From a virus, in the IMG/VR virus record IMGVR_UViG_3300005254_000003, positions 86 to 64,085 of that record: a stretch of 64,000 bases of DNA; one strand, given 5' to 3'. The translations under genes were made by a program, and so were the position numbers. The notes under the pieces are model-generated. The model made no database searches. It saw nothing but the letters and a program-made list of their open reading frames with translations, and was not told where the DNA came from. This document shows, one piece after another, positions 16,265-58,967 of this stretch; position 1 is the first letter of the stretch, and the number at the start of each line of letters is the position of its first letter.

Positions 16265-16276
16265 GTAATTAATTAC
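16265..16276. promoter_or_regulatory. GTAA-N4-TTAC operator-like palindrome 1
   Basis: GTAATTAATTAC, perfect. Confidence 0.85.
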
Positions 16277-16291
16277 AACCAAAAGGACGTT

Positions 16292-16507
16292 ATGATTTGC
16301 CCTAAATGCAACCATGAAATGAATCCAGTCAATCTCGAGAGGTCAGTTGTCGAGTGTGTAAAGTGCAGGCATCGTCAGCATATTTATTTGCCGGATCTGG
16401 ATGTCGGGAAAGTCCGGGTTGACCTTAATGAATTGACCATCGGTGAACTACCCTGGGCGGTAAGAGCTTTATTCAATGAGTCTACCGAGGATGAATATGA
16501 CGCTTGA
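16292..16507 (+). CDS. Small Zn-ribbon protein
   Basis: CPKC...CVKC; AAGGA RBS. Confidence 0.6.
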   Translation: MICPKCNHEMNPVNLERSVVECVKCRHRQHIYLPDLDVGKVRVDLNELTIGELPWAVRALFNESTEDEYDA

Positions 16508-18203
16508 ACACCATGAATTTCTTGAATTTATAAATGAGTACGCTGCCGAGGAACTGAAAAAGGCCAAGGGGCAGGAGGTTTCCGGCTCAAAACTTTTGCC
16601 GGCCCAGACAGATGGGCCGCAAACCTTTTTCGTCAATCCTTACGATTTCACCAGTCAATACGGGCTTTGGCGGGAGCGTCGGTCGGCTCTTACCTGGGAT
16701 ACCCTCCGGGTCATGGCGGAAAAGAATCCGATCGTCAGTGCCATCATCAACACCCGCATCCGTCAGATTAGCTCGTTTTCGGCCCCGGTCAGTGAACAGG
16801 AAACAACTGGCAACGACCAGTTGGGGTTCAAGATCGCCCACAAGGATTCAAACAAAAAGCTGACCAGCGGCGAGGAAAAATACGTTCTCGAGCTGGAGAA
16901 TTTCATCACTCATTGCGGATATGTCCAACCGGGGCAGCATCGGGTCGGCCGGGATGGGTTTGACATATGGTTGAAAAAGATCGTCCGCGATTCGTTGACG
17001 TTCGATGCCGCGGTGTCTGAGTTGGTTCCGACCCGGAAAGGGGGGATTCATTCGTTCTATGCGGTGGATGCCGCTACGATCCGGTTGGCGTTGACCCAGC
17101 AAGATGATGATGGGCTGGATGACAAGAAATACGTCCAAGTGCTCAACGGGCAGATTGTTGTCGATTACGAGCCGGATGAGATCATGTACGGCATCCGGAA
17201 TCCCACCACGAACATCAAAAACAATGGGTACGGGATCGCCGAGCTGGAGCAGCTTGTGACGATCGTGACGAACATCTTCAATGCCATGACCCACAACGCC
17301 ATGTTTTTCAAGAACGGCGCTGCAGTGAAAGGCTTGATCAACATCAAGACTGGTAAGGGCCAGACCGGAGCGCCGAATGATCAGCTCGAAGCGTTCAAGC
17401 GGGCGTGGCGGGCGATGGTGACCGGAAGCCAGAATGCCTGGTCAACGCCGATCCTCCAATCCGAGGGGGTGGAATTCGTCAGCATGGGTAACACCAACCG
17501 AGAGATGGAATTCCAGCAGTACCTCGAATTTTTGGTCAAGCTGGCCTGCGCTGTTTATTCCATCGATCCGGCTGAGATCAATTTCTATATGGCGGCTTCC
17601 AGTGGTGGCGGCTCGCCCATGTTTGAGTCCAATCAAGAAGCCAAGCTCAAGATGAGTAAGGACAAAGGGCTTCGTCCGCTTTTGGCTTCGATCGCCCGGT
17701 GGGTCAATTATTACGTCCTTGAGCCAATCACCCCCGATTTTCGGTTCGTGTGGGTTGGCATGGATTCTAAGGATGAAAAAGAGATCGTCGAGCTTCGGAC
17801 GAAAGAAGTTGGCTCATATATGACGGTTGATGAAGCCCGGGCCGAGGCGGGTAAAGAACCGCTGGGGGAGGAAAAGGGCGGCAACATCATTCTTAATCCG
17901 CAATATATCCAATATCTGCAACAGCAGGCAATGGCGGCACAGATGGGCGGCATGGGAGGTGGCGGCGATGAAGAAACCGGAGAGGGCGGAAATACCGATT
18001 TCAGCGATCGTGGTGGCGGCGATCAAGATCTGGAACTGGTTGGCGGGAAGCCGGAGGGAGAGGCCGAGGAAGTGGCCGGAGAGAAGCAAAGCGGAGAGAT
18101 CGCTGCTCAGTCAAAGGCAAAGGGTTCAGCGGATGAAAAAGAGATGAAAAAGAGTCTTTTGCGAACCCGAGAAAAATATCTTCGGATTATGATCGGGGGT
18201 TGA
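16476..18203 (+). CDS. Portal protein (Twort/SPO1-like); real start probably 16491 or 16497
   Basis: IINTRIRQI, KIVRDSLTFDA, YGIAELEQL, FFKNGAAVKG, EMEFQQYLEFL...IDPAEINF. Confidence 0.92.
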   Translation: MSLPRMNMTLEHHEFLEFINEYAAEELKKAKGQEVSGSKLLPAQTDGPQTFFVNPYDFTSQYGLWRERRSALTWDTLRVMAEKNPIVSAIINTRIRQISSFSAPVSEQETTGNDQLGFKIAHKDSNKKLTSGEEKYVLELENFITHCGYVQPGQHRVGRDGFDIWLKKIVRDSLTFDAAVSELVPTRKGGIHSFYAVDAATIRLALTQQDDDGLDDKKYVQVLNGQIVVDYEPDEIMYGIRNPTTNIKNNGYGIAELEQLVTIVTNIFNAMTHNAMFFKNGAAVKGLINIKTGKGQTGAPNDQLEAFKRAWRAMVTGSQNAWSTPILQSEGVEFVSMGNTNREMEFQQYLEFLVKLACAVYSIDPAEINFYMAASSGGGSPMFESNQEAKLKMSKDKGLRPLLASIARWVNYYVLEPITPDFRFVWVGMDSKDEKEIVELRTKEVGSYMTVDEARAEAGKEPLGEEKGGNIILNPQYIQYLQQQAMAAQMGGMGGGGDEETGEGGNTDFSDRGGGDQDLELVGGKPEGEAEEVAGEKQSGEIAAQSKAKGSADEKEMKKSLLRTREKYLRIMIGG

Positions 18204-18263
18204 GTCTGACATCGAAGTTAATTTCCAAATTTAAATTTATCAGGGACAAATAAGGGGGCAAAA

Positions 18264-18671
18264 ATGAAAAAAATCTGTTTGGCTGTTCTGTGTGTTTTGT
18301 GTCTCGTATCGGTGGCTCTGGCTGAACCTGTTTCGCTGGCATGGGATCCTAACAGCGATAATGTCACAGGTTATCGTCTATATGCCAGGACTGGTAACAC
18401 CTATGACTATGCCAATCCGATATGGGAGGGGTCGTTGACGACTTGCACGGTCGATGTCGCAGCGGATTTACAAACAGCTTTTGTCGTCCGGGCGTATCGA
18501 GTCTTGAATCTCACCGGGGATGTTCAACAAAGCGGGGATAGCAACGAGGTGATTTATACACCGGATGCCTTGGTCAATCCGCCCTCTACCCCGAATGGTT
18601 TGTTTATCAAAGCTATCGAGGAAATCATCCAGGGGCTTGAAACACTGAAAGAGGCTATCGCCAACAGTTAA
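18264..18671 (+). CDS. Secreted FN3-like protein with C-terminal coiled coil
   Basis: Signal peptide; SLAWDPN...GYRLY...FVVRAY...SGDSNEV. Confidence 0.7.
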   Translation: MKKICLAVLCVLCLVSVALAEPVSLAWDPNSDNVTGYRLYARTGNTYDYANPIWEGSLTTCTVDVAADLQTAFVVRAYRVLNLTGDVQQSGDSNEVIYTPDALVNPPSTPNGLFIKAIEEIIQGLETLKEAIANS

Positions 18672-18690
18672 TTTTTGTCTGTGAAACCAA

Positions 18691-18702
18691 GTAATTAATT
18701 AC
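18691..18702. promoter_or_regulatory. Palindrome 2 (before the DUF5675 gene)
   Basis: GTAATTAATTAC, perfect. Confidence 0.85.
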
Positions 18703-18717
18703 ATTCGGAGCTTTTTT

Positions 18718-19122
18718 ATGACACCTATTGTGGAACTCGTTCGGCTTGAAACCGGGAAACAGGGCACTTTCGGTGCCTTGTTGATTTGTAAAAAGGTTTT
18801 CTGCTTCACCCTGGAGCCGCCGGCCCGATTGAATAAGAAGCGGGTCAGCAGCATTCCGCCAAGCCAGTACATTTGTTGGCGGCACCAATCACCCCGATTC
18901 GGTGAAACTTTCCAGATTCTCGAGGTGCCGGATCGGTCGGAGATCCTTTTCCATTCCGGAAATGTCGTCACCAACACGGAGGGGTGCATTCTTCTTGGTT
19001 CGACAATCGGGAAGCTCAAGGGCGACCGAGCAGTGCTTAACAGCGGGGACACGTTTAAGGCGTTCATGAAAGCGGTTGAAGGGTTTCAGGCCTTTCACCT
19101 GACCATCCGTGAAGTCTATTAG
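18718..19122 (+). CDS. DUF5675-family protein, candidate endolysin
   Basis: TLEPP...IPPSQY...RSEILFHSGN...TEGCILLG. Confidence 0.75.
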   Translation: MTPIVELVRLETGKQGTFGALLICKKVFCFTLEPPARLNKKRVSSIPPSQYICWRHQSPRFGETFQILEVPDRSEILFHSGNVVTNTEGCILLGSTIGKLKGDRAVLNSGDTFKAFMKAVEGFQAFHLTIREVY

Positions 19123-19138
19123 GAAAGGGGGTGTTCGT

Positions 19139-19354
19139 ATGTTCGAAGCAATTGTAGAATTTATCAAATGGTTTTTCAGTCTCAAGATGGATGCCGTGAC
19201 GCTGCCGTGGGTTGATGCCAATAAGATCACCATCGGCTTTTTCCTGGGCGCCCCGTACATGATCTATCGCTGGTATCGCAACAGCGTCAATAAGATCAAG
19301 AATCTCGACACAGAGCTGGACAAGCAGGAAGCCGGCGACAAGGCGGAGGGATAA
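19139..19354 (+). CDS. Small membrane protein, holin-like
   Basis: One TM plus charged C-tail; AGGGGG RBS before ATG 19139; in the lysis cluster. Confidence 0.5.
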   Translation: MFEAIVEFIKWFFSLKMDAVTLPWVDANKITIGFFLGAPYMIYRWYRNSVNKIKNLDTELDKQEAGDKAEG

Positions 19355-19357
19355 CCG

Positions 19358-19753
19358 ATGGCTGGAGTCAAGGCAATGACGGTGCTTTTCGCCCCTCCGG
19401 ATTACTGGGCCCTGACCGAAGACCAGCGCAATGAGATTTGCAACGGTTGTGGTCCCAAGGGGCTCGACTATTTGGTCCCTGACACCATTTGGTTTCTTTC
19501 GATCAAGGAAGCATGCCGCATTCACGATTTCATGTATGAAATGGGTGAAACGCTTGCCGACAAGGAAGCAGCCGACCGCATATTTCGGAATAACATGGTC
19601 CGGATCATCGAGGCGAATCCCACCTGGCGTTGGCTCACGCTAAAGCGGCTCGAACGGGCCGAATTTTACTACAACATGGTTGACAAATACGGCGGCCCCT
19701 CGTTCTGGAAAGGAAAGAACAAACCCGAAGAACTGGGACTGGCCTTTGCGTAA
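19358..19753 (+). CDS. Phospholipase A2-like phage protein
   Basis: CNGCGP...ACRIHDFMY...ADRIF. Confidence 0.6.
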   Translation: MAGVKAMTVLFAPPDYWALTEDQRNEICNGCGPKGLDYLVPDTIWFLSIKEACRIHDFMYEMGETLADKEAADRIFRNNMVRIIEANPTWRWLTLKRLERAEFYYNMVDKYGGPSFWKGKNKPEELGLAFA

Positions 19754-19780
19754 CCAATTCAACACAAGGAGTAAAGACGT

Positions 19781-20284
19781 ATGAAACAGCTCAAGTTTCT
19801 TTGCATCATGCTGGCCATGATCATGATCGTCGCCCCGATCGTCGGGTGCGGCACCCTTACAACCACGACCGATTCGGTGTGCAACTACATCCCCGAGGGG
19901 CAAACATCGGTCATCTGTGCTGTCGCTGACTATTACAATGTCGCTCCGGAATCCGTGGCCAAGATTATCAAGATTGGCAACGTGGCGGCCCTGGCCGGTG
20001 ATGTGTATTCGGCCAAAAGCGCAATGGCATTTTTGGATGAGGTTGAAACGTTTTTGAAAGAGTCCAAAGTCAATGGCCTTACCTATGCGGCCGCGATTAC
20101 GGCGGCAAAGGCGAAATATGAGGTTCTGCCGGAAAAGACGAAAGGGGTTCTTGTCATTCTAGAGGAATTTGTCGTCACTCAGACTGCTTATGCTGGTGAT
20201 CCGCTTCAGGATTACGATTACATGATTCTGCTTATGGGTATCGAGGATCAGCGTAAAGTCATCCGACCTTTCTTGATAATCTAA
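19781..20284 (+). CDS. Lipoprotein (spanin or exclusion candidate)
   Basis: Lipobox IVG-C after a hydrophobic signal peptide. Confidence 0.65.
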   Translation: MKQLKFLCIMLAMIMIVAPIVGCGTLTTTTDSVCNYIPEGQTSVICAVADYYNVAPESVAKIIKIGNVAALAGDVYSAKSAMAFLDEVETFLKESKVNGLTYAAAITAAKAKYEVLPEKTKGVLVILEEFVVTQTAYAGDPLQDYDYMILLMGIEDQRKVIRPFLII

Positions 20285-20334
20285 GTTTGCCGGGAGGCGC
20301 TATTCGTGCGCCGTGTTTCGCTACCTTGGCACCA

Positions 20335-20370
20335 CCCCCGAGCCTATTGGTACGGCTCGGGGGTTAATTT
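20335..20370 (+). terminator. Hairpin terminator after the lysis cassette
   Basis: CCCCCGAGCC / GGCTCGGGGG stem followed by TTAATTT. Confidence 0.55.
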
Positions 20371-20401
20371 CATCAGGTGAGCCGTCAACGGGGATAGGGC
20401 A

Positions 20402-21112
20402 ATGGGTTTAATCGTTCAATCAAAAGGATCGCTCGAATCGGCCTTGTCGATGTTGACCCGTTTGCTTGCAGTCGATGGGGATGGGTCAGGGTTGGATGCC
20501 GATACTCTCGACGGGTCGCATGCTGCGGCGTTTGAACCTGCTTTTTCTAAAAATACAGCTTTTAACAAGGATTTTGGGGTAACCGCCGGAAGCGTCTGCG
20601 AAGGAAACGACGCCCGACTGTCGGCTGGTTTTCCGACCGGCACCATTATGCTGTTCGGTCAAACAACTCCGCCGACCGGATGGACAAAAATTACCGACCA
20701 CAACGACAAAGCATTGAGGGTAGTTTCTGGAACGGCTGGGTCAGGGGGGTCGGTTGCTTTCAGCACGGTCATGTCGAGTGCGAGGCTGTGCTCCAGCGTA
20801 ACCGCCACCGGGACGGTGGGGTCAACAACACTGACCATAACAACCATGCCAAGCCATGATCACTTTATCGCAAGTTCTGATACTTCATCTTCGTCTTTGA
20901 GTTCGTCTAACTACTTGGTTCGTCAATCCACGGTTTATAGCGGTGATCGTGCGGCGTATCTGGCGGGTAGTGCGACAGTCCCGAATATCGGTAACTCTCA
21001 ATCCGTCGGTGGCGGTAGTTCTCATACTCATGGGTTCACAGGTACAGCTCATCAACATTCTACCAATCTGGAAATTCAATATGTCGATGTCGTCCTGGCC
21101 TCGAAGGATTAA
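20402..21112 (+). CDS. Stand-alone tail-fibre tip/collar protein, paralog of the fibre C-terminus at 56209-57549
   Basis: PTGWTK...HNDKALRVVSG...H-x-H motifs...QYVDV. Confidence 0.75.
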   Translation: MGLIVQSKGSLESALSMLTRLLAVDGDGSGLDADTLDGSHAAAFEPAFSKNTAFNKDFGVTAGSVCEGNDARLSAGFPTGTIMLFGQTTPPTGWTKITDHNDKALRVVSGTAGSGGSVAFSTVMSSARLCSSVTATGTVGSTTLTITTMPSHDHFIASSDTSSSSLSSSNYLVRQSTVYSGDRAAYLAGSATVPNIGNSQSVGGGSSHTHGFTGTAHQHSTNLEIQYVDVVLASKD

Positions 21113-21121
21113 GGGGGGATC

Positions 21122-23608
21122 ATGATCATTACCGCGATTTTCAAAAATCAAGGTGTCCCGGCAACAGGGCTTACTCCCACCATCGACATATACAACGTCA
21201 CAGGGAGCGTTCAGGTCGTGACGGCAGCGGCCATGAGCGAAGTGGGCGGGGGAATTTACAGATACGATTTTGCCGCTTTCAACCCAGCTCTGGATTATGC
21301 GGTCGTTTGTGATGGGGGGTCGAGCCTGGGGAATGCCGATCGATACGCTGCGGGTGGCACGACGGTTGAAGGGATGGCTGAACAGATACTTGCCGATACC
21401 GCCGAAATGCAGACTGACTTGGCCAATGGCGGTCGCTTGGATCTCTTGGTCGATGGTATTAAAGCCAAAACAGATCTCATTCCTGCGGATCCGGCTGACC
21501 AGTCTCAAATCGAGGCTGCTATCGCTGCTGCGGAAGCAAATATCCGCGGAGCTGCTGCGGATACCTTGGGAACGCTTTCCGACCAGATCGATGCCGTTGA
21601 TACAGTGGTGGATGCAATTAAGCTGAAAACCGATTCGCTTCCGGCCGACCCGGCGAGTCAGGCGGCGGTGCTTTCGGCGGTCAGCACCTCGGAGTCAAAT
21701 ATCCGCGGTGCCGATTCCGACACATTGAAGGGGTTGTCGGACCAGATCGATGCCGTCCAGGCCCAAACCGACCTCATTCCTGCTACTCCGGTAGATCAAC
21801 TGTCGATTGAGGCGGCCCTTGCCGCTGTTGAAGCAAATATCCGGGGCATTGATGGTGATACGTTAAAAATCATTTCCGATCAGATCGATGCCGTTGATGC
21901 CGTTGCTGACGCTATCAAATTGAAAACAGATAGCCTGCCGCCGGATCCTGCCGCCGGTTCGAGTGTCGTTGCGGCGATCTCAGCCGCCCAGGCTGCGATC
22001 ATTGGCGGGGATGGGGATTCCCTCGAACTGCTCTCCGATCAGCTCGACAGCAACTTGTCCGCCATCCAGGCGGTTCAGAACAACACCACTATACGGATTG
22101 ATGTGCCGGCCCGTTTGGTGCGTCCGGATGTTGGGGCCAAGACTTATCGGATCATCCTCGGACTTTACGACACCAATGGCAATCCCGAAGTGCCGGACAG
22201 TGCGCCATCGATCCAAATCGAGAACGTGAGCGGGTCTGAGAGGCTCGCCATTACGTTCATGACTCAATACACGGGTCAGCCTGGGCAATACTATTATGAT
22301 TACGCCATCGCCTCCGTATCGGCCTTGGAAATTTTGGTCGTAACCATTGGGGTGACCGAAGGCGGGGTGACCACTTATCATCGCCGGAGTACCGAGGTGA
22401 CCGAATTCGAGGCCGACTTGAATGAAGTCCAGGCCAATGTCTCGGCGATCAAGGCAAGGACGGATCTTTTGCCGGCCAACACGGCCACGGAGCTGTCCAC
22501 CATCCAAGGTTCTGTCGCCGGGGTGCAGAACAGTCTCGACAGCGGGGTAAGCGGCCTTGCGGCAATCAAAGCGGTGACTGATGCAATCCAGGCCAAGACG
22601 ACCAATTTGCCAGATAATACGGCCAGCGAATTAAATGCCATCGATGGGGACAATGCGACGATCATCGCTTTGCTTCAGAACGCTTCCTATGGCCTCAGTG
22701 CTCTTAGGGTCTTGATCGAGGCTATCGATACCAGCGCGGAGCTGGCTGCCCGGTTCAATGAGATTAAAGGGGCGGGCTGGGCGACAGAGACATTGACGGG
22801 CCTTGATGCTTTGCTGGACGCCATTAAGGCACGGACGGATTTTCTCCCTGTCAGCACCATTGCCGAGTTAAATGCCATCGATGTTTCGATTGCTGGCTTG
22901 GCGACTGATGTTGGAGAGCATGACACGGATATAAAGACGTTGCTTCAGAATGCGACCTACGGGTTGTCGGCGTTGAGAACCTTGCTCGATACCATCAACG
23001 CGGATACCACTTCCGGCGTTCAGGCCATGTTCGATGAAATCAAGGGCGTTGGGTGGATGGCAGAAACCTTGGTTGCTTTGGATGGGCTTCTTGATTCCAT
23101 CAAAAATCAGACAGATCGCTTGCCGGCGGATCCTGCATCTCAAAGCCGGGTTGGAACCGCCATCAGCGAGACCGAGGGGCGCCTGGCCCTGGCCCACAAC
23201 AACATCTTTGCTGCCATCGTCAATCCAGGGGAACAGTTGACCCGGATTGAAACTGCGGTCGGTGAGGTAAAGGAAAAGACCGACAATCTGCCGACCAATA
23301 CGGCCGTTGAACTTTCAGATATTGAAACGCTGGTCGGTGCGATCAATGCCGCCACTTCCGAGGCTGGGATTCCGGCCGACATCCAGGCAATGATTACGAA
23401 CCTTCAAAACGCCGTGACGACCTTGATTAACGCCGTGCAGGCAGATGTCACCTTCATTCGGGATATCGAGGGTGGTCGCTGGCGGATCGTGGGCACTCAG
23501 ATGGTTTTCTACAAAGAGGATAACGTGACGGAGGTTGCCCGGTTCAATCTTTTCGATGTCAATGGGAGTGAATCCGCCAGCAACGTCTTTGAACGGCAGA
23601 GGGTGTGA
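21122..23608 (+). CDS. Large repetitive coiled-coil virion protein
   Basis: Tandem ~46-53 aa repeats (DQIDAV...AIKLKTDSLPADPA); second repeat family LLQNAxYGLSALR. Confidence 0.7.
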   Translation: MIITAIFKNQGVPATGLTPTIDIYNVTGSVQVVTAAAMSEVGGGIYRYDFAAFNPALDYAVVCDGGSSLGNADRYAAGGTTVEGMAEQILADTAEMQTDLANGGRLDLLVDGIKAKTDLIPADPADQSQIEAAIAAAEANIRGAAADTLGTLSDQIDAVDTVVDAIKLKTDSLPADPASQAAVLSAVSTSESNIRGADSDTLKGLSDQIDAVQAQTDLIPATPVDQLSIEAALAAVEANIRGIDGDTLKIISDQIDAVDAVADAIKLKTDSLPPDPAAGSSVVAAISAAQAAIIGGDGDSLELLSDQLDSNLSAIQAVQNNTTIRIDVPARLVRPDVGAKTYRIILGLYDTNGNPEVPDSAPSIQIENVSGSERLAITFMTQYTGQPGQYYYDYAIASVSALEILVVTIGVTEGGVTTYHRRSTEVTEFEADLNEVQANVSAIKARTDLLPANTATELSTIQGSVAGVQNSLDSGVSGLAAIKAVTDAIQAKTTNLPDNTASELNAIDGDNATIIALLQNASYGLSALRVLIEAIDTSAELAARFNEIKGAGWATETLTGLDALLDAIKARTDFLPVSTIAELNAIDVSIAGLATDVGEHDTDIKTLLQNATYGLSALRTLLDTINADTTSGVQAMFDEIKGVGWMAETLVALDGLLDSIKNQTDRLPADPASQSRVGTAISETEGRLALAHNNIFAAIVNPGEQLTRIETAVGEVKEKTDNLPTNTAVELSDIETLVGAINAATSEAGIPADIQAMITNLQNAVTTLINAVQADVTFIRDIEGGRWRIVGTQMVFYKEDNVTEVARFNLFDVNGSESASNVFERQRV

Positions 23609-24125: not shown

Positions 24126-24140
24126 AAGAAAAGAGGCTGT

Positions 24141-25201: not shown

Positions 25202-25213
25202 GTAAGTAATTAC
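25202..25213. promoter_or_regulatory. Palindrome 3
   Basis: GTAAGTAATTAC. Confidence 0.8.
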
Positions 25214-25238
25214 GTTGACATTCGGAGGGATAGTCTCG

Positions 25239-25823
25239 ATGCTGATCATCGACCTTGAAAAAGCGGCCTATAAACTCCAGGGCCGAACGGACTTCCAGGG
25301 TTTAAACATTTCGATTGAAAACCGAAAGGGGTCGGTTCGCCGCGGGGTGGATAAAGATGGTCACGAATGGCAGACCAAGATGAAACATGCCTACGGGTAT
25401 ATCCGCCTTTCTGATGAGGTTCGCCGTAAGGGGGCCGACGGTGACCATGTCGATTGCTTTATCGGGCCTTCCCGCGGGTCTGAGCGGGTTTTCGTGGTGC
25501 ATTTGAACCGGGCAGACAATGAAAAGTTCGATGAGGATAAAGTGTTTCTCGGTTTCGACTCCAAGGATGAGGCCAAGGCTGCTTTTGATGCCAATTACGA
25601 CAAGGTGGGACAACGGCTCTACGGCGGCATGACTGAGATGGACATGTCTGCATTCAAGCAGCGCCTGGCGGCACGATCCAAGGGGATGATAAAATCGCTC
25701 CGGTTCGAGGGCAAGGATTCTCGCCCGGATTCGGGGTTGAAGAAATCTTTGGCTGCGGATTTGATGCACGTTTTGATGGTACCTGGCCGCCCTATTTTTG
25801 CGTCTAAACGCGAAAGTAATTGA
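25239..25823 (+). CDS. InPase (inorganic pyrophosphatase-like) domain protein of phage polyvalent-protein type
   Basis: FQGLNISIENRKGSVR...YGYI...GADGDHVDCFIGP...FDEDKVFLGF...AFDANY; GGAGG RBS. Confidence 0.8.
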   Translation: MLIIDLEKAAYKLQGRTDFQGLNISIENRKGSVRRGVDKDGHEWQTKMKHAYGYIRLSDEVRRKGADGDHVDCFIGPSRGSERVFVVHLNRADNEKFDEDKVFLGFDSKDEAKAAFDANYDKVGQRLYGGMTEMDMSAFKQRLAARSKGMIKSLRFEGKDSRPDSGLKKSLAADLMHVLMVPGRPIFASKRESN

Positions 25824-25827
25824 TTAC
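25816..25827. promoter_or_regulatory. Palindrome 4
   Basis: GTAATTGATTAC. Confidence 0.8.
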
Positions 25828-29771: not shown

Positions 29772-29789
29772 TTTTATCCATAAATACAA

Positions 29790-29801
29790 GTAAGTAATTA
29801 C
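29790..29801. promoter_or_regulatory. Palindrome 5
   Basis: GTAAGTAATTAC. Confidence 0.8.
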
Positions 29802-32779: not shown

Positions 32780-32800
32780 TTTTTTTGGCCTCGTGTCGAA

Positions 32801-32812
32801 GTAATTAATTAG
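32801..32812. promoter_or_regulatory. Palindrome 6
   Basis: GTAATTAATTAG. Confidence 0.7.
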
Positions 32813-34282: not shown

Positions 34283-34503
34283 CGAAAGGCTTGGTCGCAT
34301 GCGGTACTTGCGGCAGTGAAATGATCCGGGAATATCCTGACGGAAAGAAAAAACTCCGGACCAGCATACTTGTTTGGGAGGGGGATCGCTGCATCGGAAA
34401 ATGCCGAAAATGCGGGGCTGACGTGGTTTTGCCGGTGCAGTTGGCTATGCCGGTTTCTGCTACTCCGAAAAAAAAGTTGGTTCATATCGTTTATCCCCGT
34501 TGA
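34279..34503 (+). CDS. Zn-ribbon protein
   Basis: CGTC...CRKC. Confidence 0.6.
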   Translation: MTKGLVACGTCGSEMIREYPDGKKKLRTSILVWEGDRCIGKCRKCGADVVLPVQLAMPVSATPKKKLVHIVYPR

Positions 34504-34545
34504 CAGGTATTTTTGATTCTGGCTATAATATAAGTATCTAATTAC
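34500..34545 (+). promoter_or_regulatory. Consensus sigma70 promoter plus palindrome 7
   Basis: TTGACA-N18-TATAAT (34500-34529); GTATCTAATTAC at 34534-34545, then a GTAATTAG half site. Confidence 0.75.
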
Positions 34546-34671
34546 TGTAATTAGTTCGGTTTGTGGCTAAATCTAAGGGGGCAGGAATGATTTTCTAAGC
34601 GGTCGGGGTATGTTGGGTTAGCTCGTTTCATTTTCGGTTGCTGTCGGTGGGCAGCGTTAAGCTCCAATTTT

Positions 34672-34720
34672 GAGGGAGTATTCGGCAGGAAAATTGCGCC
34701 GTTTACTCCCTCTTTTTATT
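34672..34720 (+). terminator. Intrinsic terminator in the leader of the protease/capsid operon
   Basis: GAGGGAGTA / TACTCCCTC 9-bp stem plus T tract, 13 nt before the start codon. Confidence 0.6.
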
Positions 34721-36441: not shown

Positions 36442-36461
36442 TTTTTTCATCTTAAGTCGAA

Positions 36462-36473
36462 GTAATCAATTAC
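36462..36473. promoter_or_regulatory. Palindrome 8 (before MCP)
   Basis: GTAATCAATTAC. Confidence 0.8.
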
Positions 36474-38198: not shown

Positions 38199-38278
38199 TG
38201 CCGTCTGAGCTAATTCTTCCGGGGCGGTGAAATGCCGCCCCTTATTTGAACTGATCAAGCAACTGAAAGGATCTTCTC

Positions 38279-46008: not shown

Positions 46009-46026
46009 TTTTGTTCTGCTGTTACA

Positions 46027-46038
46027 GTAACGGATTAC
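46027..46038. promoter_or_regulatory. Palindrome 9 (divergent spacer)
   Basis: GTAACGGATTAC. Confidence 0.55.
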
Positions 46039-46087
46039 TTTTGAAACATGGGGGCCGGATGGCCCCCATTATCCAGGAGGCCATATC

Positions 46088-46592: not shown

Positions 46593-46637
46593 TTGACGAA
46601 GGCCCTGGAACCTTATAGAATAAAAGTAATCAATTAC
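46593..46637 (+). promoter_or_regulatory. sigma70 promoter plus palindrome 10
   Basis: TTGACG-N17-TAGAAT, then GTAATCAATTAC at 46626-46637. Confidence 0.8.
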
Positions 46638-51427: not shown

Positions 51428-51429
51428 CT

Positions 51430-51645
51430 ATGGCAATGTCGGCAGCAAGCATGGCGGCGTATATCGAGAGCCACCTGGCAGCACTTGATCATACCCAAAC
51501 CAACAGCGCAGCCAGCGCCGAAACCTATCGGCAGTCAGTCCTGCAGGCTTTCTGCCAGGGGGTCATCGATGAGATCGTCAACAACGCCGTGGTGACGACT
51601 ATCAGCGGCGCACCTGATGGGGAACACACCGGCGAGATCGCCTGA
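51430..51645 (+). CDS. Small spike-associated protein
   Basis: 71 aa, ends GEHTGEIA; follows the spike gene. Confidence 0.55.
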   Translation: MAMSAASMAAYIESHLAALDHTQTNSAASAETYRQSVLQAFCQGVIDEIVNNAVVTTISGAPDGEHTGEIA

Positions 51646-51665
51646 TCGGTTTTAACGGGGGATAT

Positions 51666-54098
51666 ATGGCATCCAGCAGTCTGACAAAATTAAAGCGTTT
51701 GTCCGACGAATTGAGTTCGGTCGGGCAAAACCCGTCTTCGAACGATTCCAGGGTGAATCACAGTCAATTCGGCAAGAACGTGGTTCTATACCTTTACACC
51801 GATGGACTGATCACCGGCACTGTTAAAAAAGACCAACGCTTCATCTTCCCGGTCAACCCCGAGGAATTTTCCGTCAGCCGCAACGAGCGGGTCCAGGTCG
51901 TTCAGACTTTGGGTGAACCCTTCATCGATGAGTTCGGAAAAGGTATGCCCACGCTTACCGTCCGGGGCACCACCGGATGGCGTATCCGGCCGACCATCGA
52001 GAATATCGACGGACATGAAGCCTTCCGCCGGCTGCATCGCAATTTCATCGATGGTTATTTTGATCAGCGCCAGGCCAAGGTCGGGGCGGGGTTGAATCCG
52101 GATGATGTGATGCTGGTCGTGGTCAACAATGTCGATGACCTCAGTTACAAAGTGGTTCCCCAAAATTTCAAACTGCTTCGGAGCCGGGTCAAGCCGCTGC
52201 TTTATCAATACGAGATCACGTTCGGTGTTCTTGAAGATCTGAACTCGATCGAGGCCTTTAAAAAAGTGGAGGATCTTGTCAGCAAGCCCAAAAGTCGGAA
52301 TTGGCTGTCTGCCTTAACAGAACGGCTCACCCCCTTGGTTAATAAACTCATGGTTTTTGCCACGCCGGTGTGCACCGCCGTAGCGAATTTCATCGATACC
52401 AGTGTGGGAATTCTCGAGAACGCCAAGGCTGGGGTAGGAGACATCGCTAACTTTATCCATGGGGTGAGTTCCTCAATCGAGCTGGTCCTCGATGCCACCC
52501 GGGACACCCAGGCGTTTATCAACGATTTGCCGCTGGAGGCCATCCTTGAACTCAACGAACTTACGAGCGTGGTGGGGGAGTTCAACTGCTACCTGAAAAA
52601 CGGTTTGACCGAGTCCTGGCTGCCGGATTTCTCCGGGGTATGCGGGGTAACCGATTGCGCTACGACGCACGGGATCAAATCCGGCGCCATTGCCGACAGT
52701 GTCTCCAACGCCGTCGAATGGGTGGTCGAGATGCGCGAAGCGGCGAAACGCAACGGATCGGCAACGATCATCGGTATTCGCCACAGTGATGAAAATCTGC
52801 CCAATATGTTCGAAGATCCGTCGGCCGCCATCGTCATGGAAAGCACTTTAGATGACAAGCTCGAGCAGCTTTCGTTGATCCAAAAAACACCTGCGTCCGC
52901 TGGCGGGCTCGACGGGGTCTATGAGGCCATCATCAGCACTGTCGGCGACATCGATATGGATGCCAGCCTTTTGCCGGATGAAAATACAACCGACGATCTG
53001 AAGAAAATCAGCCAATTCAAAATCGTAACGGTCAAGGAAAACGAGTCGCTTCAAGCTATCGCTTACCGAGAATACGGGGATTCAAACAGGTGGTATGAGA
53101 TTGCTGCGGCAAACGATATCGTGATCGAATCTGCAACCGAATTGCTGGTGCCCTACACGTCGTTCACGGTTACGGGTAACCTTTACCGGAGCACGCAGCA
53201 TATCGACATCGGAATGGCTGTGCCAAGCAACTATGCTGTCGCCGGGGTTACGCTGGTCATCAAGGATGCCATGGGCGCCTGGCAAAAGATGCAAGTCGAA
53301 AGCGTTTTGGGCAGTGTGATCACGTTTCACGAAACCTTCAGCCAGAATTACACCGGCCCGATTACGGTCATGAGAATGACCAACCTGGCCAGCTATGGGG
53401 TACTGGATGGAGAGACTTTTTTGACAGCAGCCTTCTCGACTGGTTCCAAAACACTGTCGTTGAATGAGGTCAAAGACATCTATCCGGGGTATGCGCTGTT
53501 CGTACAAGGTGTCAGCGAAGCCCGAAGCTATAAAGTCGTCAGCGTGAATTATCTCGAGAAAAAAGTCATTGTCGATAAGGCTTCGATCGGGTTTGCGTCG
53601 GGGGCGAAGGTTCAAATCTACAATCGGGAAACAAGTCAGGTCCACATCACCCCGGGCATGCAGTTGAAAATCCCAATCACCAGTGGGGACCAGAACGTTC
53701 CTTCGCAAAGCGCCAACGAGATTTACGGGACTGATCTTGAAACTGATTCTTCCGGTTGTCTTGTGGTGGCTGATGGGGATTTCTCCTTGATTTCGGGCTT
53801 GGCCAATCTCAAACAGGCGATCGAACATCGGATTCTTTCAGATTATGAAAGCCTGATCGTGCATCCCCAATATGGTTGCGGGCTGCTGGCGATTGTCGGG
53901 GCAAAGAACACACCAGCGATCCGGACGTTGGCCAAGGCAGCTCTTATCGATGCGTTGAATCGGGAGCCCAGGCTTGCCCGGGTTTCATCGCTCAACAGCT
54001 TTTCGGTGGGGGATGCGATCAAATTTGCGATCGAGGTGCAAAGCACGGATAGCAATACAGCAACGGATCTCAATTTCGTAATCGGAGGGGGCAACTAA
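51666..54098 (+). CDS. Fused baseplate protein: tube-initiator-like + LysM + gp25/GPW-like wedge
   Basis: FPVNPEE..TLTVRGTTG; ESLQAIAYREYGDSNRWYEIAAAN (LysM); GTDL...GLANLKQAI...HPQYG. Confidence 0.75.
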   Translation: MASSSLTKLKRLSDELSSVGQNPSSNDSRVNHSQFGKNVVLYLYTDGLITGTVKKDQRFIFPVNPEEFSVSRNERVQVVQTLGEPFIDEFGKGMPTLTVRGTTGWRIRPTIENIDGHEAFRRLHRNFIDGYFDQRQAKVGAGLNPDDVMLVVVNNVDDLSYKVVPQNFKLLRSRVKPLLYQYEITFGVLEDLNSIEAFKKVEDLVSKPKSRNWLSALTERLTPLVNKLMVFATPVCTAVANFIDTSVGILENAKAGVGDIANFIHGVSSSIELVLDATRDTQAFINDLPLEAILELNELTSVVGEFNCYLKNGLTESWLPDFSGVCGVTDCATTHGIKSGAIADSVSNAVEWVVEMREAAKRNGSATIIGIRHSDENLPNMFEDPSAAIVMESTLDDKLEQLSLIQKTPASAGGLDGVYEAIISTVGDIDMDASLLPDENTTDDLKKISQFKIVTVKENESLQAIAYREYGDSNRWYEIAAANDIVIESATELLVPYTSFTVTGNLYRSTQHIDIGMAVPSNYAVAGVTLVIKDAMGAWQKMQVESVLGSVITFHETFSQNYTGPITVMRMTNLASYGVLDGETFLTAAFSTGSKTLSLNEVKDIYPGYALFVQGVSEARSYKVVSVNYLEKKVIVDKASIGFASGAKVQIYNRETSQVHITPGMQLKIPITSGDQNVPSQSANEIYGTDLETDSSGCLVVADGDFSLISGLANLKQAIEHRILSDYESLIVHPQYGCGLLAIVGAKNTPAIRTLAKAALIDALNREPRLARVSSLNSFSVGDAIKFAIEVQSTDSNTATDLNFVIGGGN

Positions 54099-55225
54099 TG
54101 TTTCAGATTAAAAACTTCAATTCGATCGTCGCTTCCATGATCAATAACGTCACCGGCGGATCGGATGAATTGACCGATTTTAACACCGGCAGTGTTGTCC
54201 GAACTATCCTTGAAGCCGCGGCGGCCGAGATCGATCAATACTATCAAGCCTTGCTCAAAGGGTTTTATGAGGCGGTACCGGTTGCCATTTACAAGTCGTT
54301 TAGCTTCAGCCGCCTGCCGGCGGTGGGGGCGTCGGGTTATGTGACATTCACCCGCGAAAGCGGCTATGTGGGAGAGATCACAATTCCGACTGGCACCCGG
54401 GTGACCATTCCCGGTGAAAGCTTCAACTATGCCGTTGTCTCCGGGGTGGTTATGGAAGCCGGGGTCAATACGGTCGACGCCCTTGTGCTGGCGGCGGTCA
54501 CTGGCAGTTCCACCAATTGTTTGGCCGGCTCTATCACGTCGCTCACCGATTCTATCGATGGGATTGCTTCTGTGACGAATGCCGCGGCTTTTACGAACGG
54601 ATCGGATGAAGAAACCGACGGTGAACGCAAGCTTCGTTTTCAAAAATGGCTCAATACTCTAGCCCGGTCCACCCGGGAATCGATTGAATATGGCGCCAGT
54701 ACGGTCAAGCTGTATGATGAATCGGGGGTTGTCACCGAACAGGTGACAAAGGTCGTTGTCTATGAGCCCTGCGTCGATGACACGCCTATCGGGGATCCAG
54801 GGACGGTCTATGTTTACATCTGGAACGGTGTCAATGGAGCCAGCTCATCGTTGATCGCCGAAACGAGTAAAATTCTGCATGGCTATATCGATGACGATGG
54901 CAACAAGGTCGCTGGCTGGAAAGCGGCCGGCGTGGTGGCAACAGTGGCGGCGGTCACTCCAACGGCGGTCAATGTCACCGCCACCATCACGCTTGATGGT
55001 CCGCGGGCGGAGGCCGATGTCGAAGCTGATGTCGAGGCCGCGATCGGAAACCTGTTCAGCAGCCTGGATATCGGCGAATCGTTGATTTTTTCAAAACTGA
55101 TTCAAACGGTCATGGATGTTGAGGGGGTGGCGGATGTGAGTTTCACAACTCCTACGGCCAACACCTCTGCCGGCGGGGATTACAATATCTGTGCCCAAGG
55201 TACAGTCAATTTGACTTTCGCATAA
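54098..55225 (+). CDS. Baseplate J-like wedge protein
   Basis: TDFNTGSVVRTILEA, NGSDEETD.ERK.RF, DVEGVADV. Confidence 0.9.
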   Translation: MFQIKNFNSIVASMINNVTGGSDELTDFNTGSVVRTILEAAAAEIDQYYQALLKGFYEAVPVAIYKSFSFSRLPAVGASGYVTFTRESGYVGEITIPTGTRVTIPGESFNYAVVSGVVMEAGVNTVDALVLAAVTGSSTNCLAGSITSLTDSIDGIASVTNAAAFTNGSDEETDGERKLRFQKWLNTLARSTRESIEYGASTVKLYDESGVVTEQVTKVVVYEPCVDDTPIGDPGTVYVYIWNGVNGASSSLIAETSKILHGYIDDDGNKVAGWKAAGVVATVAAVTPTAVNVTATITLDGPRAEADVEADVEAAIGNLFSSLDIGESLIFSKLIQTVMDVEGVADVSFTTPTANTSAGGDYNICAQGTVNLTFA

Positions 55226-55237
55226 CAGGGGGTGCCC

Positions 55238-56146
55238 ATGGGTGTTTTGACCCGAATCCTCGATTTTTTGCCGACATACTTTAAAACCGATCCGGAAAAG
55301 GTTGCTGTCTTTACGATCGAGCATAGCAGCCCAACTGCGCTGATGCGGTACTCGATCGCCGATGATATGATTTCGGCCAAATCGTTCGGCAGCTTCTCCG
55401 ATGATTTCAACATCTCGCTGGCGGGGAAAACGATTCAGCAGGTTGTGGATGAAATCAATGCGGTTCCCGATTATACGGCGACGATTTTCTCCGGGCCTGA
55501 ATCGATCAATGCGATCCGACTGGTCGATATTGAAAAGACCGGCGATCCAACGGTCTATTATCACCAGAATTCTGGATGGGCATTATTCAAAGCGATTGCA
55601 TTGGAATTGAAAGAGGCCAAGATTGCTGGTGACGAATTGCTTCGGCAAATGGGAATCCCCAGCGCCACAGGGATTCTTTCGAATCATTGGGGAAGCTACT
55701 TCAACATCGGCCGGCTCACGGATGAAACCGATGCCGTTTACAACCAGCGGATCATCGATTCTCTGGTGCGGCCGAAAAGCAACAACGTGGCCATGGAAAT
55801 CGTTCTTGAGGCCTACTATGGCTACGAAATAGACGTTTTCGACCTGGATTATCTCGGCAGTTCTTCGATGCTGATGAACAATATCCCAACTCCGGTGCAT
55901 AATCGAAATTATCCGATCATGGCGGCTAACACGATCGGTAAAGAGCTTTGTGTCTTTGGGGTGCGTTTCCCGGTGAATACCATATCGCATTGGAACCAGG
56001 CCCAGTTTGATGAGTTGCAAGAACTGATCTACGACCTGCGGGCCGCCGGTACCCGGCCGAAATTGTTCTGGACGGATGCTCCGATTTTTACGCCGGCAGA
56101 GATTCCTTATAACGCAGGGCCGGTGTTTTATACGAAATATCTTTAA
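55238..56146 (+). CDS. Baseplate wedge protein (gpI-like)
   Basis: WGSYFNIGRLTDETD..Y..RI; DLRAAGTRP. Confidence 0.75.
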   Translation: MGVLTRILDFLPTYFKTDPEKVAVFTIEHSSPTALMRYSIADDMISAKSFGSFSDDFNISLAGKTIQQVVDEINAVPDYTATIFSGPESINAIRLVDIEKTGDPTVYYHQNSGWALFKAIALELKEAKIAGDELLRQMGIPSATGILSNHWGSYFNIGRLTDETDAVYNQRIIDSLVRPKSNNVAMEIVLEAYYGYEIDVFDLDYLGSSSMLMNNIPTPVHNRNYPIMAANTIGKELCVFGVRFPVNTISHWNQAQFDELQELIYDLRAAGTRPKLFWTDAPIFTPAEIPYNAGPVFYTKYL

Positions 56147-56173
56147 TTTTGTTTCTCTTTGGCATAAAATGAA

Positions 56174-56185
56174 GTAATTAATTAC
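56174..56185. promoter_or_regulatory. Palindrome 11 (before the fibre gene)
   Basis: GTAATTAATTAC right after TAAAAT. Confidence 0.85.
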
Positions 56186-56208
56186 ATTGAGTCAAACAGG
56201 AGGGGGCT

Positions 56209-57549
56209 ATGCCTTTCACCGGAAAAATAGGAACCGACTGGACCGGGGAATACAGCCGATGGAATTTTGACGAAACCAAAGCTTACCAGATGGTCGCCAA
56301 GATGCAGCTCGAGCCCGGTACGTTGTCTGGTATTCCTCTGCTTGATGCTGAACTGAATGAAAACTCCGAGATCCAGTTGCAACTGCTTCGCCGGGCGATC
56401 AAGCGCATCTATGGCAATGGCACAACCGGCAACGGCTTTCGCATCATTCAATCTTCGACGGACATCAACAATAACTTTGTCATCACCGGCGGCGATGGAA
56501 CGCCAGCGGGGGCCGGGGCGATTTTCATCGAAGGGTGGCAGGCGATCAATCTGTCAGATGTCGAATACACCGACCAAGACTACGGGCCGGTTGCATTAAC
56601 CACCCCAAGCGGTGCCGACCGGACAGATGAGGTTTATCTCGATGTCTATTACAAAGAGGTCACCCGAGCCGATGACGGGGATATCGTCGATCCGGTTGTG
56701 GCCCTGGAAACCAGCCGCCGGATCGCCCTGGTTTGGGAGGTCAAAGTCGCCGAAGGCACAACCACGCCGGTCGATTATGTGGATGCCAACAACGTCCAGC
56801 ACTGGACGTTGAAATTGGCCGCGCTCAATCGATTGAACGGCGACGCCACGATCACCACAGCCATGATCGTCGATGCCCGCAATGCGGAGCGGGTGGTATC
56901 ACTTGCTTCTGAACTTGCGACCCATGCGGCATTGAGTAACCCCCATAACGCGACCAGTTTGGCGACGGCCGACAGATTGATTCTTCGGGATTCGGTAGGC
57001 CGTGCCCAAATTGCAGCGCCGGCGGTGGATGCCGATATCGCCCGCCTGGCGGATGTCAGGGCGGTCATTCCATCTGGTTCGGCGGCTTTGTGGGTTCAAA
57101 CATCTGCCCCGACGGGTTGGACAAAACAGACGACCCATAACGACAAAGCGTTGCGGGTGGTCAGTGGGGCAGCAGGTAGCGGCGGTTCTTTGGCATTCAG
57201 CAGTGCGATGGCTTCCGGTAGAGCATCGGGCAACACGACAGCGGCTGGCACGGTCGGTAACACAACTTTGACCACGACTCATATGCCGGCGCACTACCAT
57301 GATCTGGCGGCGAACGCTACTTCCGCGTCGGCTTTAACCACTTCAAACTACCTTGCCTTTTATGGCAACGTCTATGGTGGTGAGCGTAACTATTACTTTG
57401 CCGGTACGAGCACGGTGCCGACTTTAGGGCGGTCTGAAACCGTCGGCGGTGGGGCTGCCCACGGCCATACTTTCACTGGTTCAGCCCATAACCATACTTT
57501 GGATATGTCCGTCCAATATGTGGATGTGATCATCGCAACCAAGAATTAG
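56209..57549 (+). CDS. Tail fibre protein
   Basis: PLLDAELNE, RTDEVYLDV (baseplate attachment); collar-like tip with H-x-H motifs. Confidence 0.85.
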   Translation: MPFTGKIGTDWTGEYSRWNFDETKAYQMVAKMQLEPGTLSGIPLLDAELNENSEIQLQLLRRAIKRIYGNGTTGNGFRIIQSSTDINNNFVITGGDGTPAGAGAIFIEGWQAINLSDVEYTDQDYGPVALTTPSGADRTDEVYLDVYYKEVTRADDGDIVDPVVALETSRRIALVWEVKVAEGTTTPVDYVDANNVQHWTLKLAALNRLNGDATITTAMIVDARNAERVVSLASELATHAALSNPHNATSLATADRLILRDSVGRAQIAAPAVDADIARLADVRAVIPSGSAALWVQTSAPTGWTKQTTHNDKALRVVSGAAGSGGSLAFSSAMASGRASGNTTAAGTVGNTTLTTTHMPAHYHDLAANATSASALTTSNYLAFYGNVYGGERNYYFAGTSTVPTLGRSETVGGGAAHGHTFTGSAHNHTLDMSVQYVDVIIATKN

Positions 57550-57561
57550 AAAGGAAATTTT

Positions 57562-57969
57562 ATGGAACTGAAACCCAAAAACAACTGTCCGCTGAATGGC
57601 TTTGCCGAGTGCAAACAATTCGATTGTGCGTGGTTTGTCCATATTCTCGGGAAGCACCCGCAGCAAGATAAAGAGATTGACGAATTTGCATGCGCCATTT
57701 CATGGCTGCCGATCCTTTTGATCGAAAATGCTCAAATGTCCAGGCAAACCGGTGCGGCAGTGGAGAGTTTCCGTAACGAAATGGCGCAACCCGGCAACAA
57801 CATGATAGCGGCCTTGATGGAAACCCTTAACACATTGCAACAGGTTGTTACCCATCAAAGCGCCAATATCATGCCCATGATGCTAAATGCCATGGCTGCT
57901 CGCCGGATCGAAGCCGCTAAACCCGACCTCACACTGTTGGAAGCTGATCAATCTGCAAGTCAAGGATAA
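57562..57969 (+). CDS. Fibre-associated Cys-rich protein
   Basis: CPL...CKQFDCAWF...CAISWLP.LLIENAQ..RQTGAAVESFRNE. Confidence 0.65.
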   Translation: MELKPKNNCPLNGFAECKQFDCAWFVHILGKHPQQDKEIDEFACAISWLPILLIENAQMSRQTGAAVESFRNEMAQPGNNMIAALMETLNTLQQVVTHQSANIMPMMLNAMAARRIEAAKPDLTLLEADQSASQG

Positions 57970-57981
57970 GGAGGTTCTCCC

Positions 57982-58623
57982 ATGAGGATGACAATAATTC
58001 CAAGTGATCAAGTAATAAGTGTCAATGGTGCGGGGCTGAATTGTGCCTTCACCTGTGCTGCCAACATCCATGCCATCCAGGTCTATGATGGTTACGCCGA
58101 GATTGAATACAATGACGGCGAGCTGAACCAGAAAGTCACCGGGACGGATTTGCAAACCATCATTGATACCTATCAACCGATTTTCAATGCAGCCATGCTG
58201 CGGGTTACTCCGCCGAACGCATACTCCGTATTTGATGAAACGATAGAAAGCTGGGTGCCGGATCTGAATCTGTATCGACAGGTCAAAATGGGAGAGATTT
58301 ACCGGGCTTTTGATGAAGTTGTCCGGCAGCCTGTTCCGGTCGAAGTCAATGGCACCACCTACATCATGGATGGCAAGGAGGACAGTGCATCCCGGCTCAA
58401 CGCAGCCATTTCCTTGGCCCAGGTCTTGGGGCAAACAACCATCGACATTATCGATTATTACGATGCCAAACATCCCGGGGTATCACTTGCCGATGCACTT
58501 AAGATCGTCCTGGCTCAAGGCACCTTTTATCAAGCTCACTACTATCGGCGGGCAGATAAGCGCATCGCGGTCAATGCGGCAACGTCCATCGAGGAACTTC
58601 AAACCATCACCTGGGAAAATTAA
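57982..58623 (+). CDS. Tail fibre assembly chaperone (DUF4376-like)
   Basis: HAIQ...EIEY; ...ATSIEELQTITW. Confidence 0.75.
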   Translation: MRMTIIPSDQVISVNGAGLNCAFTCAANIHAIQVYDGYAEIEYNDGELNQKVTGTDLQTIIDTYQPIFNAAMLRVTPPNAYSVFDETIESWVPDLNLYRQVKMGEIYRAFDEVVRQPVPVEVNGTTYIMDGKEDSASRLNAAISLAQVLGQTTIDIIDYYDAKHPGVSLADALKIVLAQGTFYQAHYYRRADKRIAVNAATSIEELQTITWEN

Positions 58624-58640
58624 TGCGGGAGGTTTCAATC

Positions 58641-58937
58641 ATGCGTCACTATTCTTTTACCGATCAGCTTTATCATTCCGACATAGCGAATCATGTCGTG
58701 GCGGCTGCGGATGTCTCCCAGGTCTTGAACCTGGCACCAGCATCCAAAACCCTTTTCATCCGAAATACGGGGGCGGACAACGTCTATATCGCCTTTGACA
58801 AAGATGTGGCGACTACCGATGATTTTCTGCTGGCGCCGACAGATGGCCTCGTTGAGTTCAAGGTGCAGTGCGAAAAGCTGGCCTTGGTTTGCGACGCCGG
58901 ATTGACGACCAGCGTTCGGGTCAGCTCAAATTATTAA
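58641..58937 (+). CDS. Hypothetical beta-rich structural protein
   Basis: GGAGG RBS; LFIRNTGADNVYIAF. Confidence 0.55.
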   Translation: MRHYSFTDQLYHSDIANHVVAAADVSQVLNLAPASKTLFIRNTGADNVYIAFDKDVATTDDFLLAPTDGLVEFKVQCEKLALVCDAGLTTSVRVSSNY

Positions 58938-58955
58938 TTTTGGGCCAGTTCTACC

Positions 58956-58967
58956 GTAATTAATTAC
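58956..58967. promoter_or_regulatory. Palindrome 12
   Basis: GTAATTAATTAC, perfect. Confidence 0.85.

Follow-up and report, generated by a model that had tools for sequence, protein, structure and literature searches.

Operators that occur as a dozen or more dispersed copies under one controlling protein are known from several systems, among them the C1 operators of phage P1, the conserved inverted repeats of phiC31 and the KorB sites of RK2. In mycobacteriophage L5, more than 20 sites for the repressor lie at promoters and in short intergenic gaps, and a block of both initiation and elongation has been proposed (PMC9283540). Here we describe a probable network of this kind in the virus record IMGVR_UViG_3300005254_000003, of which we analyzed a window of 64,000 nucleotides (nt; positions 86 to 64,085), nearly all of the 66,378-bp record. 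An initial annotation of the window had listed twelve copies of the palindrome GTAA-N4-TTAC, from position 16265 to 58967, and had compared them with the operators of a repressor. We found that each copy is the core of a 22-bp palindrome, TCAAAGTAATTAATTACTTTGA, and that, while some copies lie on the predicted start point of a promoter, most lie at gene junctions behind a T-run at a fixed distance, a feature that the initial annotation had overlooked. On balance we favor the view that the sites are operators of one phage-encoded dimeric repressor that silences the lytic genes.

The likeness to L5 and the other Cluster A phages (repressor gp71) lies in the many copies genome-wide, their rarity in the host and their position at promoters as well as in promoter-less gaps. 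In the L5 genome the stoperators stand directly before the ribosome-binding site of the next gene and the repressor gene is within an early operon; the gene for our candidate repressor, an XRE-type protein described below, is likewise in the early region of related phages. In contrast, each L5 site is an asymmetric 13-mer to which a monomer binds and which works in a single orientation, whereas the 22-bp palindrome described here implies a dimer, and a separate T-run, the only directional part, supplies the direction; inspection of the L5 genome revealed no such T-run at its stoperators. Host phylum and phage type are also unrelated. The P1, phiC31 and RK2 systems share the dispersed copies of one operator and differ in their proteins and site sequences, and we know of no positioned T-run described for any of them. 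Compared with the Cro/CI/XRE repressors (434, lambda, PBSX Xre and the C-proteins), the palindromic operator similarly overlaps a core promoter and the candidate binder is of the HTH_3 family, but classical Cro/CI switches have 3–6 operators beside the repressor gene, as opposed to 20–30 sites spread over ~134 kb and including the head and tail genes. Dispersed operator networks are already known; new here are the palindromic sites, three structural-gene promoters under direct operator overlap, the T-run at junctions and the phage family itself, an unstudied one of Desulfobacterales.

Distribution of the motif in the window and in related prophages

An exact search for GTAANNNNTTAC returned 11 matches in the window, whereas 100 shuffles gave 0.34 on average and never more than 3. 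Ten of the twelve annotated copies were exact, and those at 32801 (GTAATTAATTAG) and 34534 (GTATCTAATTAC) carried one mismatch each. A position matrix trained solely on sites of related phages, used with a 12-bit cut-off, returned precisely the same twelve (17.6–29.5 bits), while the shuffled 66-kb record gave 0–3 matches above this cut-off. All twelve are either in the non-coding ~5% of the block at 16.3–59.2 kb or, at 25816, overlap a stop codon, so that the placement given by the initial annotation (intergenic or at a gene junction) also stands. Its statement that AA usually precedes the core applied to ten of the twelve and not to the other two. The claim that no copy lies outside the element held in part: an exact match at 2927 is inside an open reading frame (ORF), has none of the shared flanks, was missed by the matrix and is probably due to chance, and the matrix recovered a real copy past the window end, at record position 65986 (window position 65901). 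No operator site was found by the matrix in the accessory and defense stretch at 1–16 kb. From site to start codon of the + strand genes the distance is 7–50 nt, except at 34534, where a leader of ~190 nt intervenes. A literature search for the 12-mer returned solely an unrelated paper on a human long non-coding RNA, and an Rfam scan of the window returned no family.

The + strand block at 16.3–59.2 kb is a myovirus virion module (portal, protease, scaffold, SU10-like capsid, sheath, tube and baseplate), and the record is rated ~41% complete. A 24-kb megablast against the phage collection gave no match; a search with the capsid protein pointed to viral contigs as well as prophages within Desulfobacterales genomes. 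Two prophages, G1 and G2, in the host genomes G001 (5.8 Mb) and G002 (7.1 Mb), respectively, contain the structural genes of the window in the same order, as well as an early block coding for the Pol III alpha subunit, gyrase B, ligase, DnaB, RecA, ribonucleotide reductase and terminase; an integrase gene lies at the left end of G1, and the relatives are integrated. The element in the window is the structural half of a temperate Desulfobacterales myovirus of ~134 kb. Terminase and replication genes are absent from the record due to truncation, because the relatives hold them in the missing part (terminase, Pol III alpha subunit, intein-containing gyrase B and UvsW helicase, RecA and ribonucleotide reductase).

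In G001, all 8 copies of the strict motif GTAATNNATTAC are within the 132-kb prophage, as are 35 of the 36 strand matches to the AA-flanked form AAGTAANNNNTTAC; in G002, 20 of 23 strict copies are within the 138-kb prophage. Elsewhere in G002, and in Desulfosarcina variabilis, we saw only background copies with non-TTAA centers. The motif is thus not equally frequent genome-wide, a result that would have spoken against a regulon, and since it is essentially confined to the prophage in two host genomes we conclude that there is no host regulon. The full prophages carry ~20 and ~30 sites, compared to 12 in the window, in replication and structural blocks alike, and five to six relatives have sites at orthologous junctions, such as those before the capsid, protease, portal, tube and chaperone genes. 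A related early region is also present in a cultured organism, D. variabilis Montpellier (CP159846.1, ~4.55–4.60 Mb; locus L026). Five copies of the strict motif fall in a 47-kb span there, and the region, which may be a partial prophage, codes for the XRE protein, gyrase B, CobS/CobT-like proteins and the Pol III alpha subunit.

Anatomy of promoter-class and junction-class sites

We aligned 54 sites from six sources, oriented by the direction of the downstream gene. The core is flanked by mirrored bases, T C A A A at -5 to -1 and T T T G A at +12 to +16, which complete the 22-bp palindrome; the central four bases are variable, and the outer flanks differ somewhat from phage to phage. Since this long palindrome is conserved in sequence, the binder is presumably a dimeric DNA-binding protein.

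A -10-like hexamer (TAnAAT) occupies -10 to -5 in 20 of the 54 sites, on the upstream side only, and is lacking in the other 34; in 10 of the 20, a TTGACA-like -35 hexamer is present as well. Two 20-kb scans of the + strand, together covering 16000–55999, returned only three promoters matching the consensus at 10 or more of 12 positions, at 16232, 34500 and 46593. Each has sigma-70 hexamers separated by 16–18 nt and ends exactly 4 nt before a palindrome. Record-wide there are five such + strand matches, and only these three precede a site. The -10 boxes reported by the initial annotation just upstream of four sites were indeed present, ending 4 nt before 16265, 34534 and 46626 and 3 nt before 56174. 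Given a start point 7 nt from the -10 box, as is usual, the first A of GTAA is the predicted start of transcription, and the palindrome would span about -7 to +14 of the promoter. At 16265, 34534 and 46626, then, a palindrome in the size range of an operator (~14–22 bp) overlaps a core promoter, which supports the earlier proposal of one regulator's palindromic operator placed over start sites. These units before the portal, protease and tail-chaperone genes recur in relatives: those at 16265 and 46626 have orthologues in G1 and G2, and TTGACA/TATAAT followed by 4 nt and a site, orthologous to 34534, is found in L002, L003, L005, L006 and G1.

The second feature is a run of T at -18 to -15, seen in 36–40 of the 54 sites, with an A/T-rich stretch before it (-22 to -19); no mirrored signal was seen downstream of the core. 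It is commonest at sites without a -10 box (24 of 34) and at gene junctions, where it abuts the preceding stop codon; 17 of the 34 junction sites have a gap of 18–22 nt between stop codon and core. Seven genes of the window have a T-run after their stop codon, and all seven precede a site; no such run is present at any of the ~37 other + strand genes. Within the range scanned for terminators (16000–55999), no hairpin precedes the T-runs at 18672, 29772, 32780, 36442 and 46009, suggesting that the junction T-runs are not ordinary terminators. The junction sites are also conserved in place: that between the scaffold and capsid genes (36462) is kept in G1, G2, L003, L005 and L006, that between sheath and tube (46027) has an orthologue in G2, and the final-G variant at 32801 recurs at the orthologous junction in L005.

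Repression model, candidate binders and alternative readings

At the promoter-class sites (portal, protease-capsid and tail chaperone), the palindrome begins at the last base of the -10 box and would reach about +14, so a bound dimer would keep RNA polymerase from initiating; here the geometry is seen and the repression is inferred. Since the start point of near-consensus host promoters is covered, a site of this class could only repress, and such a block would be needed in the lysogen because these promoters, standing before head and tail genes, would otherwise fire constantly. At junction sites without a promoter, the bound protein may instead block polymerase arriving from upstream, as proposed for the L5 stoperators. 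Escherichia coli RNA polymerase halts 14 nt before an EcoRI-Q111 roadblock (PMC5499547). The T-run ends at this same distance from the core, and because of this match we propose that it has a role in release: it would lie approximately at the active site of the blocked polymerase, where the weak U:A hybrid would help the transcript to leave. Site and T-run together would then form a terminator only while repressor is bound, that is, in the lysogen, with read-through once the repressor is gone. That the junction sites are such protein-dependent conditional terminators, with the T-run as a roadblock-release element, is a tentative suggestion drawn from the spacing. A similar logic operates in eukaryotes, where DNA-bound Reb1 or TTF-I stops RNA polymerase I and an upstream T-rich element provides the weak hybrid for release; polymerase and domain of life are different, and for our junction sites the parallel is proposed from spacing.

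The binder is probably not encoded in the window. Our best candidate, plausible but held with less than even confidence, is a 91–101-residue XRE/Cro-type protein with an HTH_3 helix-turn-helix domain, encoded in the early region of the relatives. Its gene occurs once per host genome, inside the prophage. The stretch containing the recognition helix, Y..[G/S]NFIGM.E.G, is nearly invariant over five homologues that are 30–58% identical overall, and the nearest solved relatives are an immunity repressor, the C-proteins C.AhdI and C.BclI and the 434 repressor. One C-protein has been reported to act as an elongation roadblock (PMC6237814). Motif variants flank or overlap the gene's own TTGACA promoter in four independent elements (G1, G2, L024/L026 and L028), and a standard site or a variant lies 3' of the gene in the relatives. 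Two copies of the protein folded together scored 0.39 against a mark of 0.42, a result that we counted neither for nor against it. ParB-domain proteins, also present in the relatives, remain alternative candidates that might act in the manner of KorB. An HTH-plus-M78-peptidase protein and an antirepressor-like protein of G1 were considered and rejected, neither being conserved in G2.

Several points weigh against this picture of operators and roadblocks. The three steps of repression, roadblock and transcript release are inferences from geometry. Should the footprint extend over the whole 22 bp, its edge would come within 9 nt of the T-run, and the agreement with the 14-nt stall distance would then be no better than ~5 nt. 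Junction sites standing before the most abundant virion proteins (capsid and tube) would fit a promoter or a role in boosting expression as well. A T-run is also present at a few sites without a co-directional upstream gene (e.g., 16265), and several G2 sites have A8TT in place of a pure T-run, giving a less weak hybrid. Moreover, the flank asymmetry of G2 (L016–L023) tracks the genome strand and not gene direction: the flank with less symmetry, which reads cATT on the + strand to the left of the core, is on the same strand in the early (+) and structural (-) blocks, an arrangement that none of the models considered here explains. As for the binder, the XRE gene is absent from the record of the window, a fragment without the early region, and its joint presence with the motif does not count as independent support, the loci all being from related phages.

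Among other explanations, the one that fares best is that palindrome and T-run together form a phage-specific promoter or initiator for middle or late transcripts, used by a modified host polymerase, a phage sigma factor or a phage polymerase. The short distance to the start codons, including those of the capsid and tube genes, for which high expression is required, the fixed 14-nt spacing between T-run and core, which resembles a two-part promoter, and the lack of sites among the accessory and defense genes at 1–16 kb all suit it. We nevertheless regard it as unlikely, since promoters are not 22-bp palindromes and a second promoter overlapping a near-consensus sigma-70 promoter exactly 4 nt upstream, at three or more loci per genome, would be odd. 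Furthermore, neither ~50 proteins scanned from the relatives nor the large proteins of the window contained a phage RNA polymerase or sigma domain, and sites in both replication and structural blocks do not define a single temporal class. The initial annotation had also named a "sigma-like" protein of 719 residues as a possible binder, a suggestion that is not supported: Pfam and PHROGs revealed no sigma domain in it. Sigma factors, in any case, do not read palindromes.

That the motif acts in RNA, as an AU-rich hairpin or protein site in 5' leaders controlling processing, stability or translation, is quite improbable. Every site does lie in a leader just before a ribosome-binding site, and the palindrome could fold into a 4–8-bp stem; but at promoter-class sites the predicted start falls within the palindrome, leaving a transcript without the 5' arm, and the arms keep their sequence and do not co-vary, with no compensation at the one-mismatch sites. 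The flanks are often non-complementary within a site (e.g., AAA...AAT in G2), the distance to the start codon varies from 7 to 49 nt, and there is no Rfam family.

The initial annotation had further listed as binder a PAS-LuxR protein of 235 residues (59449–60156), with a PAS domain and a LuxR/GerE helix-turn-helix, which is the layout of the phage-borne quorum-sensing receptor VqmA; its gene carries a promoter-like site of its own. Proteins of this type bind ~20-bp palindromes as dimers, and the gene adjoins the structural block. We give this proposal very little weight: tblastn found no homologue in either of the prophages G1 and G2, both of which retain the core motif at 20–30 sites, and no copy of the palindrome lies upstream of the gene. 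Because it is absent from both related prophages, the protein looks like an accessory sensor.

An equally small chance is assigned to the sites being points of recombination or module exchange, for instance targets of a small tyrosine recombinase encoded at 61131–61742 (minus strand). This enzyme is 74–83% identical across three phages with its catalytic residues kept, several sites flank variable cargo genes, and inverted arms around a short center resemble recombinase core sites. However, 20–30 active, identical and symmetric sites would scramble or delete parts of the genome, whereas gene order is conserved in the three phages, and the exact spacing to -10 boxes and T-runs would have no role. 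Least probable of all is a host regulator such as LexA linking the phage to SOS: the 4-N4-4 palindrome with its variable center and the frequent SOS induction of prophages recall it, but no host gene, recA and lexA included, carries the motif, a host regulator without host targets is unlikely, and the sequence and spacing are unlike those of known LexA boxes.

Other readings were discarded as well. An integration-host-factor-like reading of the G1 flank (AATCAA-N4-TTR) failed by a single base, and this flank is not kept in the window. A Bacteroidetes-type promoter (TTTG ... TAnnTTTG) misfits in spacing and host phylum, the phage using TTGACA/TATAAT promoters. Were a -10 box located within the palindrome or 3' of it in the flank, transcription would start after the ribosome-binding site at several genes, and for an activator site upstream of a promoter the start codons are too near (7–25 nt) to leave room for a promoter downstream of the site.

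Window features, neighboring observations and significance

The sites, promoters and T-runs of the window are listed in Table 1.

Table 1. Palindromic sites of the window with their promoters and T-runs.
Feature	Position	Strand	Remarks
Sigma-70-type promoter TTTACA-17-TAAAAT	16232..16260	+	10/12 consensus; predicted start is the first A of GTAA
Promoter-class site GTAATTAATTAC	16265..16276	+	Exact, 27.6 bits; precedes Zn-ribbon and portal genes; 4 nt past -10 box
T-run	18672..18676	+	Abuts stop codon TAA (18669-18671); ends 14 nt short of core 18691
Junction-class site	18691..18702	+	Exact, 25.6 bits; start codon of gene 18718-19122 is 15 nt on
Junction site GTAAGTAATTAC	25202..25213	+	Exact, 25.3 bits; precedes 202-aa head-associated gene; without T-run
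T-run of site 25816	25795-25799	+	16 nt upstream of core
Junction site GTAATTGATTAC	25816..25827	+	Exact; stop codon of upstream gene in its center; precedes 978-aa gene with PARP-like domain
Junction site	29790..29801	+	Exact; precedes 719-aa gene; T-run 29772-29775, 14 nt upstream, after stop TAG
Junction site GTAATTAATTAG	32801..32812	+	One mismatch, 22.2 bits; T-run 32780-32786, 14 nt upstream, after stop TAA
Sigma-70 promoter TTGACA-18-TATAAT	34500..34529	+	12/12 consensus, best of the block; precedes protease-scaffold-capsid genes
Promoter-class site GTATCTAATTAC	34534..34545	+	One mismatch; overlapping degenerate second copy at 34547-34558
Junction site, scaffold/major capsid	36462..36473	+	Exact; T-run 36442-36447, 14 nt upstream, after stop TAG
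Junction site, sheath/tube	46027..46038	+	Exact; T-run 46009-46012, 14 nt upstream, after stop TAA
Sigma-70-type promoter TTGACG-17-TAGAAT	46593..46621	+	10/12 consensus
Promoter-class site	46626..46637	+	28.8 bits; precedes tail assembly chaperone gene; 4 nt past -10 box
Site before 446-aa tail-fiber-like gene	56174..56185	+	29.5 bits; -10-like TAAAAT ends 3 nt upstream
Junction site	58956..58967	+	Exact; precedes ORF 58975-59223; T-run 58938-58941, 14 nt upstream, after stop TAA

Three RNA-level features lie within the structural block. The promoter at 34500–34529 is followed by the untranslated leader of ~190 nt (34536–34720), which closes with a hairpin (arms 34672–34680 and 34704–34712) and a T-run just before the protease gene (34733). 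It could act as an attenuator or give rise to a small RNA; Rfam has no match for it, and its folding energy is ordinary (z = -1.5). The tube gene leader has a GC-rich hairpin (GGGGGCC-GGAT-GGCCCCC, 46049–46066) between site 46027 and the ribosome-binding site, and the G2 prophage has a similar hairpin at the equivalent position. The clearest ordinary terminator of the structural block is a hairpin with a T-run at 38221–38250 (9-bp stem with 7 GC pairs), ~290 nt past the major capsid gene.

To the left of the portal promoter, positions 1–16029 code for a trypsin-like peptidase, a SEC-C motif protein, an ankyrin-repeat protein, GmrSD and the type III restriction subunits Mod and Res; in the relatives, the corresponding interval from terminase to portal holds other genes. 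At the other end, just past the tail-fiber and PAS-LuxR genes, the tyrosine recombinase (203 residues) and a 111-residue neighbor together occupy 60845–61742 on the minus strand. The recombinase is conserved in G1 and G2 above the level of the capsid protein and may be an invertase rather than an integrase.

The motif can serve as a marker to find and delimit this family of Desulfobacterales prophages, and the related early region in the cultured D. variabilis Montpellier makes the model testable. If the model is true, one small protein silences ~134 kb of lytic genes of a very large temperate phage in sulfate-reducing Desulfobacterales, and the silenced genes would include head and tail operons with near-consensus host promoters. 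The fixed T-run at the junctions suggests a design rule, a weak hybrid placed exactly where the blocked polymerase stops, which to our knowledge has not been described for phage stoperators. A conditional terminator of this kind, if true, would amount to a stoperator with a refinement built in, and to a bacterial parallel of Reb1/TTF-I termination.

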